Assembly: GCA_965248445.1 (NCBI GenBank)
Contig: CBDFJG010000002.1
Span: 32,001 to 96,000 of the forward strand
DNA length: 64,000 nt
Source: Planctomycetota bacterium
GTDB lineage: Bacteria > Planctomycetota > JAJSAM01 > JAJVHW01
Direction of reading: 5' to 3'
In this document: in pieces, positions 24,001-36,000 of the stretch
How the letters are laid out: each line of letters starts with the position of its first letter
How positions within the stretch are numbered: the stretch's first letter is position 1
Made by a program: the position numbers

Positions 24001-27000
24001 TCGCTTGTTCCGGTCGTACCAGCGCAGCAGGCGGGTTCGTAGGGACAGGACGCGCACCCATGTCCCGACGAGGTCGAGACGGTCGGCGTCAGTCAGCCGC
24101 CACCCGCGGTCTGCGATGCCGCCACCAGGTACAGCGTGACGAGTTGCTTGGCCCTCGCGTTCAGCTTCGCGCGTTGCGCCATGTCCTCAACGTAGTCGGG
24201 CCAATCGCTCGGTGACTCGGACGACGGCAGGGGCAGGTCGTGGCAATGGCCGCAACGGGCCTCGAAGTACTGGCGCCCGGCGGTGGCGCCCTCGAAGTCG
24301 CGCGTATCGACCGTGTCGCTCGTGCCGCTGCCGCCGTTGGTGCCGCTGCTGCCGCTGCTGGTCGCGCAGGCGGCGACGAGGCAGAGGACGCCGAGGAGTG
24401 CAAGCGAACGAGCAGTCATGACGGTCACCTCGGGGGCAAGTGCGAGAACAGAGTGCTCTTCTCGCGCTCGTAGAGCACGCGCCCGCTCACGATCGTGACG
24501 TCGGCCATCAACCGGTAGTCGAACGGATCGCCCTGATAGATCACGATGTCTGCGTCCTTGCCGGCCTCGAGCGAACCGATGCGGTCCTCGACGCCGGCCG
24601 CCTCAGCAGCGGTCAGAGTGATCGCTCGCAGTGCAGCGTCGCGACTGGCGCCACCACGGATCGCGAACGCGCCCTCGACGGGATACGTCAACAGGTCGCG
24701 CCCGGCGATGCCGTTGAGCGAGATGCCCGATCCGCCGCCGCCGAACCCGCCGGGCGGAAGGATGCAGAACGACGCACCCGCCTTCTCGAGGGTTGCGACG
24801 GCGTCGATGCGCGAGCCACTCTCGCCTTCCATTCCCGGCCGCGGCCAGCGGCGCTGACGCGGCTGCACGATCGCGATGGCGCCAGCGGCGGCGATCTCCT
24901 CGGGCATGGTCCACGCTTCGGTCGCGTTCGTCAGGACGAGCCGCAAGTCGTACTCGCGCGCCAGTTCGAGAGCGCCCCGGATGTCGCGCTTCGTCGAGGC
25001 GGAGATGCGCACCGGCACCTTGCGCTCGAGCGCCGCGATCAGCGTTCCGCTTCCCGGCTGACGGCCCTTCTTGCCGCCGCGGATCCACTTGCGCGCGCTC
25101 GCTAGTGTCTCGCGCAGAGAAGCGCGGGTCATGCCGGACTGCCCGGCCCAACGCACATCGAGCGCGGCGGGCTCCTTGACGATCATCAGCTCGGGCGCGA
25201 GGTACGCGGGCTTGACCACGGCATTGGTGTCGCTGTACGGACTGCGCGACCGGCCGGAGGCGACGTACGCGGTGATGCCCGCCGACAGCGCCAGTTCGCA
25301 GTACGTGCTGTCTGCCTCCAGGCACTGCGAGAACTTCTCGCCCTTTCGCGGACGCCCGCGCCGAATGCCGAAGTTGTTGCCCTGCGGCGCGACGAATCCG
25401 GGCAGGACCCACTTGCCCGTCGCATCGACGATGTTCGCGCCCTCGGGGATACGCAGATCGACTCCCACTGCCTCGATCTTGCCGTCCCGGCAGAGCACGG
25501 TCCCGCGCCGCAGGACGCGGCCGGTGCCGGTGTGCACCTCGCCGCCGACGATCGCGAGCACGTCCTCGCCGCCGACGGGCCGGCGGGACTCGCGCTCCTG
25601 GGCCGTCAACGAAGACGAGGCCACGGCGGCCGCCGCAAGCGCCGTGAGTGCGAGGAGCAGGTTGCGACGGACGTTCACGGGGTCTCCTCCACCGTCACAC
25701 CGTCGATCCACGTGCGCAGCAGGCGCGTCGTAGGAAGCAAGGGATCACCCGAATAGAGCTGCAGGTCGGCGCGGCGGCCGGTCTCGACGGTGCCGCAGTC
25801 CTCGCCCATCCCCAGCATGGTCGCCGGTCCGACGGTGGCGGCGCGCAACGCATCCCGGCTGCCGAAGCCTGCCTCCGCGGTGACCGCCAGGTAGTGAGGA
25901 AACGAACGCAGTCCGTCGCGTGAGTCGTTCCACGGGAGCAGCACGACGCGCAGTCCCGCGTTCCGCAGCATCACGGCGGGGCAGATCGTGAGATCCGTCC
26001 CGGGCCAGGAAGCCGTGCCGACGCGGATCACGCAAGTGGCGCCGAGGTCCGCGAGCTCCGCTGCGGCGTTGTACGCATCGCCGGAGAGCAGCGCGTAGAG
26101 CCGCAGCTTCTCGCCGCGCACCCGCTCGTCGGCCAGCGCCGCGGTGAGCGCGGACGCATCGGCCGCGTCGCTGATCTCACACAGCAGCGCCGTCTCTCCT
26201 TCGAGCACGCGGCGGAACGCCGCAGCGTCCTCCTTGCTCTTCGGCTCGGCGGGCTCCTTGGGCGCGTCCTTCTTGGCCTTTTCGGCCGCGGCCTTGTCCT
26301 TCTCCCACTTCGCGTGCGCCTTCTTCCACTTCTCGGTGGCATCGAGTTCCTTGCGCGCGGCGGCGAGCTTGCCGCCCAGCGTTTTCGCGAAACGCGGACC
26401 GGGTTCGGCGGTCACGCGCAGGAACGCGTGCTCGGAGCGGAGCATCGTGTCGACGTCCTCCGCCGCGGTCCGGACGGCCACGCCCTCGCCGCCGACGATC
26501 CCGCGACCGGGCAGCAACCCGAGTGTTGCGAAGCCGCTGCCCGCCGCGTAGCGGTTCGCGGGGTTCCACGGATCGAGATCGTGCAGGGCCGTCCCGGTGT
26601 CGCCGCCGCTCCCGTTACCGCGAAGGCCGATGCGCGACGCGGCGTGGACGAACGACGGCATCAAGACCTTGCCCGACGCGTCGATGGTCTCGACACCCTT
26701 CGGGATCACGACGTCGGCACGCGGCCCGACGGCCTCGATGCGGCCCTTCTTCACGACGACGACACCGTCCGGGACGTCGTCCCCAGCCGCGGTGATCACG
26801 CGCGCCCCGACGATGGCGAAGTCGGCGGGCGGCGCGGTCTCGTCGGCGCACACGGGTGACGCGAGCGCGAGAAGCAGCAGGGCGGCAGACAGGCGTGTCA
26901 GAACCACCGGCGGTCCACTCCCTCTGCGTAGGCTTCCTTGCCGTTGATCAGCACGAACAGCACCCGCGAACGCGGGTCGAGCGGCGGGCCGTCGCGTATG

Positions 27001-33000: not shown

Positions 33001-36000
33001 CGGGTGCGCTGCCTCCGATGCGGCCGTTCGCGACCACGACGGTCGCCGAGTCGGTTGCGCCGCCGACACCGTCGAGCACCGTCACGTCGCTGAACACGAG
33101 CGACGCACGTTCGCTGTCCTGTGCGTGGACGTTCGCACCGGCGAACGTGAGTCCGCCGATGGCGAGGACGGCCAGCGCCAGCGTGCGACCGGCGCTCATC
33201 GCGCGTCCTCCCGGGCGGCATCCTGAACGATGCGTCCACCGGACAGGTGCAGCAGAACGCGCGAGCGTGGCTCCCACGGCTCGCCGTCCATGACGAGCAA
33301 GTCGGCGCGCAGGCCCTCGGCAACGCGGCCGACACGGTGCGCGACGCCCAGCGAGCGCGCGGCGACGTTCGTCACGGACGGCACGGCGGAATCTTCCGGA
33401 AGGCCGGCCGCTACCGCCAGCGCGAGGGCATTGCGGAGCGAGTCGGCCGGACGGGCGGGTGCGCCCGACGTGATGGCGACTGCGACGCCGGCTCGCGCCA
33501 GGCGGCCGGGCAACGCGAGCACGTACAACGCGTCCTCGGCGTCGAGCCCGCTCACGATGCACGGCGCCCCGATCCCGGCCACGCCCGCGGGATCGTCGGC
33601 GGCGCGCGTCAGGCCCACGAACGTCGGACGAAGGCCGCGAGGCGCGAGAGTCTCGGCCGCGATCTGCGCCGACTCCGGTGTGTCGACGTACACGAGCACC
33701 TGCTCTCGCCAAAGCGCGGACATCACGCGCAGCGCCCCCTCGCGCACCGGCGGGTCGATCTCGGTAGGAGTCCGCCACGGCCGGCCGGCGAAGGCCGCCG
33801 TGAGTACCGCGCGGGCACCCGCGAGCGTCGCGGGGACACGGCTCGCGGAGAGCGCGGGGGAGCGGAAGGAGAACACCTGGGGTCCGCGCCGGGTCAGCAG
33901 CGTGGCCGTGCCGTCCGCGTCGATCGACGCAGCGGCGGCGCGACCGGCGACGAGGTTGGCCGGTGCCGGCAGGAGCCCGACGGTCGTCGTGCCGCCGCGC
34001 AGCGCAGCGCGCAGCGAGCGGTGTTCGCCGTCGAACGCGTCCGCGGCGCGCACGCCGGGAGTCAGCGCATCCGCGGACTCGGCGGCGGCGCCGTCCAGCC
34101 CGAGGGCCGTCACCGCGTCCACGAGACCGGGCAGCGCCACTCCGTTCGCGATCGTGCGGACGCGGACGCCCTTCGGCGGCGCATCGGTGCCGGCCGTGAC
34201 GAAGCGATCACCCTCGACGAGGATGTACGCGTTCTCGATCACCTGGCCATCGCCGACGTGCAGCTTCGCGACGCGATAGGCACGCCGCATGTCGATCGCG
34301 CCGTTCTCCGCGCGGGCTGTGGCTCCGTGCACGACGAGCAGGCAGATGCACGTGAGCGCCCCGAGCCCGAGCAGACGGCTACTCGATCGCACGGTGTACC
34401 TCACGTCCGGCGACGAACACGCGCAGTGCGCGCGTGCCGATCGCGAGCGGATCGCCGTTCCAGACGACGATGTCCGCGCGCTTGCCCTCGTCGATCGATC
34501 CCAGCTCCTTGTCCACGCCGGCGGACTCCGCCGCCCAGAGTGTGATCCCGCGCAGCGCATCTGCGGGGTCCATGCCGGTCCCGACCTCGTGCGCCGCGTA
34601 GAGCCGCAGGAAACGGGTTGCTCCCGACCCTCCGGTCGCGAGCGCCGGCCGCAGGCCCGCGGCGACGAGCGACGCCCCCGCGCCCGCTGGACGGCGTGCA
34701 ATCGGACGGCGCTCGTCGGTCTCTTGCACGCTCAGATTCGTCAGGATGACCCTGGCTCCGGCCTTCTTGACCGCGTCCGCCCGCGTGACGAGGCCTTCGC
34801 CGCCGGCCAGAATCAGGTCGAGGCCGAACTCCTGGCCCATCGCCAGCGCCGCGTCGGTGTTCGGTGAGAGCTCTGCGCGGAACAGCGTGGCACGCGTGGC
34901 GGGCTGCGCGTCCTTGCCGTCACCGTGGGACATAGCCGTCAGCAGGATGTCCGTCGAGTCGTCGTCGCGAACCGTGCTGGGCGGCTTGGGCGACTTCTTC
35001 GGCTTCTCGTACTCCTTCGCGCGCCCCATTGCCTTGTACGCGGCTTCGCGCCACGCGGCGCGCTGCTCCGGAGTCCACGAGCTCATCCGCGCGGCGAGTT
35101 CTGCCGGGATGAGCAGACGCTCTGCATCCGTGTCATCGTCAGCGAGGCGTTTCTCCTCGTACTCCGCGATCTCGCGCCCGTAGCGCTCGAGCGCCTCGCG
35201 CCGTTCGACCGCGCGACGCAGCGTGGTGCGCAGACTCGCAGCCCGCGACGCGCCGGGCGCGCCGCCGGCCACCGTGCGCGTCGAGATCGAGAGTACGAGC
35301 GAGCCCTCCACGGACGCCGGTGCCTCCCCGGATGCGCCATCCCCAAGGGGCACGGTTGAGACCACGGCGGCCAGTCCGGCGACGAGTTGGTCGCGCGCGC
35401 CGCCCAGTTGCAGCGAGGTGACCCCGTTCGCGAGCGCCGTGCCGACGCGGGCGTCCCACGGATCGAAGGCCGCGGCGGCCCCCACGTACGCGCCGGGGAT
35501 CCGTGCGGTCGAGTCGGCGCCGTCGAGACCGAGTGTGCTGTCCGCATCGATCAGCCCGGGCGTCACGACCAGCCCCGAGCAATCGACACGCACGGCGCCC
35601 TCGGGCACGTCGACGGTGGCGCCGACGGCGCGGATGCGATCCCCCTCGATCACGACGGTGCCCGCGGGAATCACGTCCCCGGACGCCGTGTGGATCTCGC
35701 CACCCACCAGCGCGATCACCCCATCTTCGGCATGCGCCGCCGGCACCCTCAGCACGCACGGGAGCGCGAGGCACACGAGGGCGAGAAGAGGCAGTCGGCG
35801 CATGGGTTGGTCGAGGGGTGAGCGCGGAGTCGCTCGAAGCGGAAGAGAGTAGCGGCCTGAGCGCTCCCCCGCACGCACCAGACCTTGTTCGGAGGCAGGA
35901 CGTCCGCGGTTCGGGGCAGGGCCTTCTTGGGACCAGGGCAGGTTCGGCGCGCAGTCAGTCGGCTGGACGCAAGACGACCACCAGAAGCCCGTCATCACTG

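Follow-up and report, generated by a model that had tools for sequence, protein, structure and literature searches.

In the window, a 64,000-nucleotide stretch of planctomycete DNA, eight genes on the minus strand (A to H, positions 24425 to 35803) form an operon encoding nine amidohydrolase-fold domains of the 3OOQ-like type, of which one, in gene F, keeps a complete set of metal ligands. Across the phylum, each of the other eight (here called dead) keeps its place in a fixed order, suggestive of a large complex of one working and eight inactive subunits. The reading we lean towards, with moderate confidence, is an exported hetero-oligomer in which one subunit is catalytic and eight serve as scaffold; its association, stoichiometry, periplasmic location and substrate class we infer. 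No description of such an array was found in the literature searched.

The operon starts with gene A (g00678, 34379 to 35803; 474 aa), which has a signal-peptide-like N-terminus and a dead domain with a helical, charged insert. It is followed by B (g00677, 33196 to 34392; 398 aa), C (g00676, 31976 to 33199; 407 aa), and D (g00675, 30732 to 31979; 415 aa), each with a dead amidohydrolase domain, D being the best conserved of the dead paralogues. Gene E (g00674, 28138 to 30735; 865 aa) encodes two dead domains, namely E1 (29512 to 30735), the N-terminal half bearing the gene's signal-peptide-like N-terminus, and E2 (28138 to 29511), the C-terminal half without one of its own. Gene F (g00673, 26898 to 28148; 416 aa) holds the sole ligand-complete and presumably catalytic domain. 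Afterward come G (g00672, 25675 to 26907; 410 aa), the least conserved paralogue, dead and with a Lys/Glu-rich insert, and the dead domain of H (g00671, 24425 to 25678; 417 aa), which closes the operon. All of these features lie on the minus strand, and the seven junctions from A to H overlap by 14, 4, 4, 4, 11, 10, and 4 nt. The gene models hence agree with the survey's finding of eight overlapping genes with nine domains and a double g00674. Upstream of A, a 151-nt gap on the same strand (35804 to 35954) follows a TPR gene and presumably contains the promoter. A consensus scan of positions 23900 to 36300, which says little for this phylum, yielded neither a sigma-70-like site (both strands) nor a terminator-like site (minus strand).

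The signal-peptide-like N-terminus that had been noted for each gene was also recovered in all eight. Judged by early K/R count and Kyte-Doolittle hydrophobicity of a 10-mer, they carry one or two K/R within residues 1-8, after which comes a hydrophobic 10-mer (2.47-3.04), and the internal domain E2 has no such feature (1.40). With an export signal on every gene, assembly of the nine chains would have to wait until they are exported, which sits uneasily with a complex.

PF01979 scores above the Pfam gathering threshold in all eight genes (30-87.6 bits against a cut-off of 25) and PF07969 in seven, B failing. The top NCBIfam model for most genes describes COG1228-type exported amidohydrolases, and the curated naming models tested assign none of the eight to a specific family. 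The Caulobacter-type Xaa-Pro dipeptidase model (NF051886) gives at best 80.2 bits (E; 61.7 for F) with a cut-off of 500, and imidazolonepropionase HutI (TIGR01224) gives 19.9-66.6 bits over the eight genes with a cut-off of 298; both names were rejected. Global pairwise comparison of the nine domains shows 20-31% identity (mean 26%), a wider range than the 25-31% given before. The 40% reported for g00677 and g00678 is confined to a short local BLAST segment, the global value for this pair (A/B) being 28%. Gene E was folded as a test of its two dead domains: the model is predicted to have the barrel and composite beta-sandwich of the amidohydrolase fold, and its top PDB matches are chains of 3ooq (probability 1.00, TM 0.78 over the target), with other amidohydrolases next.

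Six ligand positions were defined from 20 F-clade sequences and the full-length match to PDB 3ooq: the HxH after strand 1, Lys on strand 4, His on strands 5 and 6, and Asp on strand 8, together the signature of a binuclear metal site. F has all six (H95, H97, K174, H247, H273, and D327), each aligning with 3ooq; five are invariant in the 20 sequences and H273 is kept in at least 90%. From knowledge of the amidohydrolase family, we take these residues to bind the metals. The dead domains keep none to two, reading DTVRGG (A), VAVYGG (B), SRHSNG (C), HQKALN (D), FQVGGE (E1), HSVRGE (E2), ARRELW (G), and QNDSNP (H). Of the six, D thus retains the strand-4 Lys and the first HxH histidine alone, and E2 just that histidine. 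In the tree, the F clade has all six ligands in each of its 11 rows, the eight other array clades in 0 of 54. The HxH motifs of the nine domains are identical to those listed in the survey, where only g00673 kept HxH; the remaining ligands, a gap in that claim, are now covered, with four to six of the six missing in each of the eight domains. Because eight of nine domains miss four or more ligands, and because ligand loss recurs in every related array examined, there is good support for the view that the array is not a set of eight independent hydrolases.

In the dead groups, the top-residue frequency of the ligand columns mostly falls below the group column means (0.46-0.57); D departs from this, as does the strand-6 position, where several groups have a Gly. 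Conservation is among the lowest in the columns of the former active site, and this variability of the ancestral pocket favours a structural role. Among D orthologues assigned by position, the His is kept in 19 of 20 and the Lys in 18 of 20, a near-universal pair that hints at a function beyond pure scaffolding.

The array had been described as conserved in this planctomycete order, which proves an understatement: the order A-B-C-D-E1E2-F-G-H is found in several planctomycete families and in named Pirellulaceae, Gemmataceae, and Planctomycetaceae MAGs, and an F orthologue occurs in 57 of 201 sampled Planctomycetota genomes. Six-frame searches reproduced the earlier counts for the same family (5 of 7 genomes) and a second family in the order (5 of 5), and gave one weak fragment in one of the four genomes of a third, for which none had been reported. 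The set is either there as a whole or absent: there is no match whatever, paralogues included, in 12 of 31 relatives, and in its own genome the family is confined to this array. Where at least 1 kb of DNA flanks the array on both sides, six dead domains precede F and two follow it (9 of 9 uncut arrays); with at least 1 kb downstream, exactly two domains follow F in 19 of 19. Even at phylum-level divergence, every dead paralogue is present in exactly one copy, and none is missing from any uncut array. Junctions in the relatives mostly span -14 to +9 nt. F is invariably found within the array, with E2 on one side, G on the other and overlaps at its junctions. The tree gives every paralogue a clade of its own, with members from several planctomycete families (SH-like support 95-100 for eight of the nine; the B rows did not resolve). 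Orthology is thus one-to-one for every paralogue, and each dead one is an old, separately retained orthogroup.

Copy number varies for F only, from one to four. The F paralogues adjoin each other and multiply as a block, and since other arrays carry two to four ligand-complete copies, the "single catalytic subunit" of the survey's finding is right for this genome and not in general. Such variation is awkward for a fixed stoichiometry. At locus L034, a ligand-complete F-clade gene stands alone with 10 kb on either side, and in genome G105 an F-like match lies on a contig other than that of the two best F matches; F may thus work without its array neighbours. In Bacillota and Actinomycetota, homologues mostly occur as single genes with all the ligands, and the Gram-positive ones checked have no signal peptide. 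In Chthonomonadales the array is less degenerate, with B reading H, Y, K, H, H, D. The neighbourhood of the array holds no conserved transporter or other pathway gene; the only recurrent neighbours are mutY, in two families, and a TPR protein, in one.

The dead paralogues differ in what they conserve. Thirteen polar residues are invariant or nearly so in C (17 loci) and 15 are conserved in H (19 loci); C, D, and H have 13-16 each, with many Arg, Asp, and Glu among them. D is 34-70% identical to its orthologues. G, A, and B have 16-23 conserved positions, of which none is polar in G (16 positions, 19 loci) and two or three are in A and B. Their weak conservation leaves little for specific interfaces.

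Several of these domains are covalently joined. E1 and E2 share one reading frame in every examined array that holds both, and A and B are fused under one signal peptide in a Pirellula MAG (L020). The phylum also has a second architecture, in which an active and a dead domain form one exported protein, as seen in 10 of 10 loci that were fetched for this purpose (L013 and nine others); at L100, fetched among the same ten as those nine, active and dead domains are not fused. The models of gene E (pLDDT 83.7, pTM 0.74) and of one active-dead double, L094 (pTM 0.81), have a high whole-chain pTM that fits a defined packing of the two predicted domains.

To probe association across genes, F (30-416) was folded with D (27-415), both with alignments. 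The ipSAE was 0.47 against 0.00 for the best control; the runs gave 0.47, 0.47, and 0.43, with at least 91% of contacts agreeing and partner pLDDT of at least 86. Of 157 solved complexes, 116 attain the ipSAE mark, as do 2 of 215 mismatched pairs, and values up to 0.60 comprise only 18 of the 157 solved complexes plus both mismatches that passed. The predicted interface lends weak support to association, and likeness to solved homo-oligomeric amidohydrolases could be the source of the score. The earlier claim of one hetero-oligomeric machine thus has indirect support, from the fixed order, single retention, overlaps, and fusions, the fold adding weakly to these.

In the proposed hetero-oligomer, the eight genes would specify one exported, probably periplasmic, multi-subunit amidohydrolase. 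F would be the only subunit able to hold a binuclear metal centre and hydrolyse; it belongs to a 3OOQ-like branch, and the closest characterised relatives are amide hydrolases of peptidase-like type. The remaining domains, A, B, C, D, E1, E2, G, and H, would be non-catalytic paralogues, each with its own position, that scaffold or regulate F, and the whole would derive from a homo-oligomeric ancestor. A bolder version, which we hold only tentatively, is a periplasmic particle of fixed architecture with the eight dead paralogues in unique places round one to four F subunits. Such a bacterial counterpart of paralogue-built eukaryotic machines (e.g., proteasome rings) would have arisen from a homo-oligomeric enzyme through duplication and one-way active-site loss, with the Chthonomonadales copy as an intermediate stage.

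The products may instead be co-regulated but separate, with F a homo-oligomer and the eight dead paralogues acting alone in the periplasm (e.g., in binding, sequestering, or regulation), which we consider unlikely. Solved relatives did crystallise as homo-oligomers (10 chains in 3ooq, 8 in several COG1228-type entries), the lone gene at L034 exists, F copy number is independent of the dead genes, and the 13-16 conserved polar residues of C, D, and H could be ligand sites. However, seven of the eight dead groups vary at the ancestral pocket positions; proteins binding on their own should have been lost or duplicated in some lineages, whereas each is kept once in fixed order; and the fusions (E1-E2, A-B, active with dead) indicate physical pairing. 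There might also be two assemblies, the dead domains building a catalytically silent hetero-oligomeric scaffold or structural body and F forming separate homo- or F-only oligomers that act nearby: both within-array fusions join dead to dead, the F paralogues are adjacent and multiply as a block, and the F+D fold gave weak support only. We rate this as quite improbable, given the constant place of F inside the array, flanked by E2 and G through overlapping junctions, and the covalent link of active to dead in all ten loci fetched for the sister architecture.

The amidohydrolase superfamily includes metal-independent members, and the "dead" paralogues might accordingly have new activities, metal-independent or with other ligands, the operon then being a multi-step catabolic pathway. 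The His and Lys of D and the many conserved Arg, Asp, and Glu of C, D, and H would suit this idea, but conserved polar residues number none in G and two or three in A and B, the columns of the old active site rank near the bottom in conservation, and no transporter or pathway neighbour is conserved, leaving it very improbable. Ligand loss and fast divergence (20-31% identity) would also be expected of decaying, functionless duplicates. The conservation data already contradict such decay, to which we give practically no credence: frames are open, orthologues of every copy occur at 19-70% identity across the phylum, and no uncut array lacks a copy.

For the preferred hetero-oligomer, known systems offer partial parallels. 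F matches 3ooq_A with E 6.1e-47 (residues 41-408 against 13-387), the next solved entry reaching E 1.7e-08; by this full-length similarity, F belongs to a 3OOQ-like branch. The 3OOQ protein (Thermotoga maritima MSB8, structural genomics) shares the aligned HxH, Lys, His, His, and Asp and a helical insert after strand 4, but is a single cytoplasmic-type protein without signal peptide or dead paralogues, 10 copies of one sequence forming the crystal; no paper was found for it, and the entry title gives no function. The next-best sequence and fold matches, the Lys/Arg carboxypeptidase Cc2672 (3MTW) and prolidase-like eah89906 (3N2C/3FEQ), have the same superfamily and two-domain build, and such COG1228-type relatives suggest, by analogy, a peptide-like amide as the substrate of F. 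They are homo-oligomers of active subunits, however, and F scores far below the NF051886 cut-off. Inactive dihydroorotase-like PyrC' in ATCase complexes and animal CRMP/DRP hetero-tetramers show that amidohydrolase-fold proteins without metal ligands can serve as structural subunits, yet these are one or few paralogues, not exported, and not part of a nine-domain operon with an active paralogue of the same branch. The 20S proteasome beta ring and the exosome core place distinct paralogues of homo-oligomeric origin in fixed positions, with a minority or none catalytic. These eukaryotic rings differ in fold and role and have a solved architecture, whereas that of the array is inferred. In trypanosomatids, catalytically dead paralogues (prozymes) are reported to activate AdoMetDC and deoxyhypusine synthase by hetero-oligomerisation, the active enzyme working only in the complex (PMC5201418, PMC3663545). 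Prozymes are single dead partners, cytosolic, eukaryotic, and of other folds; the array has eight different dead paralogues, exported and bacterial, in a putative complex.

Complexes of many distinct, mostly dead paralogues are regarded mainly as a eukaryotic feature. If real, the hetero-oligomer would be an unusually large bacterial example, with nine exported domains of one fold and a clear single-copy ancestor persisting in other phyla. Since lineages differ in active-site decay and active copy number, the growth of complexity by duplication and degeneration would be directly testable. A first functional frame would also be gained for these genes, which are widespread in the phylum.

Finally, E2 carries a Lys/Glu/Asp-rich insert (28717 to 29058, minus strand; residues 560-673 of E), predicted by DSSP and pLDDT to form a single long helix (560-613) and then a disordered stretch (616-673). 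The L094 double has a 30-residue helix at the equivalent place in its active domain, and shorter charged inserts occur at the same place in A and G.

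Between 24425 and 35803, in DNA of about 70% G+C, the minus strand of the window carries eight open frames, whose start codons were chosen as those giving signal-peptide-like N-termini. In transcription order, and all on the minus strand, these are A (g00678, 34379-35803), B (g00677, 33196-34392), C (g00676, 31976-33199), D (g00675, 30732-31979), E (g00674, 28138-30735, with the two domains E1 and E2), F (g00673, 26898-28148), G (g00672, 25675-26907), and H (g00671, 24425-25678), and consecutive frames overlap by 14, 4, 4, 4, 11, 10, and 4 nt. At the N-terminus of all eight products, a hydrophobic stretch comes after one or two basic residues, a start that the internal domain E2 does not have. 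The Pfam cut-off of Amidohydro_1 is passed by eight of the eight genes and that of Amidohydro_3 by seven, while no gene reaches the cut-off of an NCBIfam model (the best being a Caulobacter-type Xaa-Pro dipeptidase, with 27-80 bits vs 500). We lean slightly towards a reading in which the array is a single operon that encodes an exported hetero-oligomeric amidohydrolase, the assembly of which we infer. A consensus scan inside the array returned no sigma-70-like site and no minus-strand terminator-like site, which says little for this phylum. Four sequencing runs, all from one study and none of them an RNA run, match positions 25800-35790.

The nine domains differ in the predicted metal site, which consists of the two His of the HxH motif, a Lys on strand 4, a His on strand 5, a His on strand 6, and an Asp on strand 8. 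Over its whole length, F matches 3OOQ, a solved amidohydrolase from Thermotoga maritima (E 6.1e-47), with HxH, Lys, both further His, and Asp all aligned. Among 20 F-clade sequences, H95, H97, K174, H247, and D327 are invariant and H273 is at least 90% conserved. The other eight domains in the window keep zero to two of the six ligands (D retains the first His and the Lys, E2 the first His). This shows when the nine are aligned with MAFFT, and a second alignment, of 116 domains from relatives, gives the same picture. The survey's finding that HxH is kept only in F is thus borne out by both alignments and widens to the whole six-residue site. Of the rows in the domain tree, all 11 of the F clade have all six ligands, and not one of the 54 in the other eight array clades does. 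The nine domains are otherwise highly diverged, with a global identity of 20-31% (mean 26%), where 25-31% had been reported before; the 40% given for g00677/g00678 (A and B) holds for a short local segment only.

The composition of the array is constant among relatives. Each of the nine arrays flanked on both sides by 1 kb of DNA or more has exactly six ligand-poor domains ahead of the first ligand-complete one and exactly two behind the last; exactly two also follow the last in each of the 19 arrays for which 1 kb or more is available downstream. Ligand-complete domains number 1, 2, 3, or 4 per array. Scanning the fetched loci with a profile of the nine domains recovered the order A-B-C-D-E1E2-F-G-H one for one, not only in both families of the order but also in three that are more distant. 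(For junction distances in relatives, only the general tightness was used, as the heuristic gave several missing values and spurious long overlaps.) Orthogroups were assigned by array position and tree, BLAST best hits being unreliable for the most diverged A, B, and G. In a FastTree phylogeny of 87 domains, A, C, D, E1, E2, F, G, and H each form their own clade with SH-like support of 95-100, although long branches were flagged and one E2 row of genome G027 falls in the G clade. The B rows form an unresolved group beside E1, and the F clade neighbours single-copy enzymes of other phyla.

In a six-frame search, F matched 19 of 31 related genomes. The earlier counts of five of seven genomes in the same family and five of five in a second family of the order were reproduced; in the third family, where none had been reported, one genome of four holds one weak fragment. 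Within the window's own genome, the family is found in this array only. Among 201 Planctomycetota genomes that are at least 85% complete, 103 have a match at E <=1e-8 and 98 have none; in 57 (counted from the match table), the best match is at <=1e-73, the level of an F orthologue. A scan of one genome per species yielded 74 loci. Arrays of at least five domains make up 13 of these, 12 titled Planctomycetota, Pirellulaceae, Pirellula, Gemmataceae, or Planctomycetaceae and one Chthonomonadales, and two more Planctomycetota loci have four domains, on a contig of 5.3 kb, and a single domain, respectively. The remaining 59 belong to Bacillota, Actinomycetota, Chloroflexota, and others, with one to three domains each, nearly all ligand-complete unless cut by a contig end. 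The hydrophobic N-terminal extension is absent from all nine Gram-positive genes inspected. A lone ligand-complete F-clade gene was also encountered (L034:9953-11188), with no other family member in 10 kb on each side.

What the ligand-poor domains conserve offers a view on their possible roles. Their former ligand columns are mostly below average in conservation, with a top-residue frequency of typically 0.2-0.5 vs column means of 0.46-0.57, in a run on position-defined orthogroups that included three fragmented arrays and hence a few misplaced rows. Exceptions are the His (19/20) and Lys (18/20) of D and a Gly replacing the strand-6 His in several groups. In a cleaned run, from which the three fragmented arrays were removed, conserved polar residues number 0 in G, 2-3 in A and B, 7-8 in E1 and E2, 13-16 in C, D, and H, and 18 in F. 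Judged from these alignments, the pattern is more in line with structural roles than with new active sites, with D as a possible exception.

Fusions and structure predictions bear on how the domains may pack. E1 and E2 share one reading frame in every examined array that holds both. In the AlphaFold2 model of E (pLDDT 83.7, whole-chain pTM 0.74), whose best PDB matches are 3OOQ chains, E2 is predicted to contain a helix of 54 residues and, behind it, about 58 disordered residues rich in Lys, Glu, and Asp. In a Pirellula MAG (L020:2535-5246), A and B likewise lie in a single open frame, which encodes one signal peptide and an insert rich in Pro and Gly; besides E1-E2, this is the second case of adjacent ligand-poor domains being fused. 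Also widespread in the phylum is a second exported architecture of about 830-960 aa, which joins a ligand-complete N-terminal domain to a ligand-poor C-terminal one. This double is present in ten of ten loci fetched for it (L013 and L091-L099, e.g., L094:2900-5467), that is, in L013 and nine of ten loci fetched later, the tenth (L100) having separate frames; five loci carry a further ligand-poor gene upstream of it. The L094 double was modelled with a pLDDT of 81.2 and a pTM of 0.81, and the whole-chain pTM of both models is consistent with a defined packing of the two domains. Folding F (30-416) with D (27-415), with a 20-row alignment each, scored 0.47 (runs 0.47, 0.47, and 0.43; best control 0.00), graded as weak support: although 116 of 157 solved complexes pass the mark and just 2 of 215 mismatches do, only 18 of the 157 solved complexes have scores of at most 0.60, as do both passing mismatches. 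Likeness to solved homo-oligomers may explain this score.

In such an assembly, F would act as the catalytic subunit and the eight ligand-poor paralogues as unique structural or regulatory subunits, the whole having derived from a homo-oligomeric ancestor. Several observations count against a hetero-oligomer, namely the varying copy number of F, the solitary F-clade gene in L034, the separate export signal on every chain, and the weak conservation of G, A, and B. A Chthonomonadales MAG from outside Planctomycetota encodes A to E2 in the same order (L030:3294-10775) before its contig ends at 10840. Its sites are less decayed (H,Y,K,H,H,D in B and H,H,C,H,G,S in E2) and its tree branches shorter, which would fit a stepwise degeneration; the locus could be an intermediate, have been transferred, or result from wrong binning. 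Parallels are provided by eukaryotic rings built from paralogues and by amidohydrolase-fold subunits without catalytic activity. Enzymes activated by one dead paralogue are another (PMC5201418, PMC3663545). The literature within reach of our search, which stopped short of subscription journals and bioRxiv supplements, yielded no description of the array or of 3OOQ.

By sequence and fold matches, the nearest characterised relatives of F are peptidase-like. In a Tissierellaceae MAG (L027:8838-11137), a ligand-poor and a ligand-complete family gene, both without signal peptides, lie side by side and have an M14 carboxypeptidase and a family-5 solute-binding protein as neighbours. They form an independent active/dead pair in Bacillota, and this neighbourhood hints at peptide substrates. 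Peptide-related neighbours occur in 2 of 12 Gram-positive loci (SBP_bac_5, M42, and S33-like in L054; SBP_bac_5 and M14 in L027) and the others vary, so gene context was rejected as too weak for a substrate call. A lead only, as a candidate family member, comes from the Tuwongella immobilis subcellular proteome (PMC8567305), Table_2 of which lists a protein of 96 kDa that carries two PF01979 domains as well as a Sec signal and was detected in the Tris-soluble fraction only; the adjacent gene encodes a 44-kDa Tat-signal protein, undetected in that data set.

The flanking genes are not part of the array unit. A mutY-like gene (HhH-GPD and NUDIX_4; 22966-24057, minus strand) begins 368 nt downstream of H in the same orientation, and mutY follows H in seven fetched loci from two families of the order (L006 and L017 being the same contig). 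Directly upstream of A, a TPR-repeat protein of 985 aa with a signal-peptide-like start is encoded at 35955-38912 (minus strand); only loci of the window's own family (L001, L002, and L005) have it ahead of the array. Rfam and tRNA scans of the window detected no RNA genes. Two frames on the minus strand, 40644-44153 (1169 aa) and 39512-40018 (168 aa), have coding-like third-position G+C and no Pfam match. The 1340-aa frame at 53553-57575 (minus strand) combines N-terminal ECF sigma regions 2 and 4 with nine CarboxypepD_reg repeats behind them; this is either a sigma factor with a very long tail or two genes taken for a single one. Finally, a 2-oxoacid dehydrogenase cluster occupies 2412-9025 (plus strand), encoding E1 alpha, E1 beta, an E2 acyltransferase, a second E1-type gene, and an E3 dihydrolipoamide dehydrogenase.
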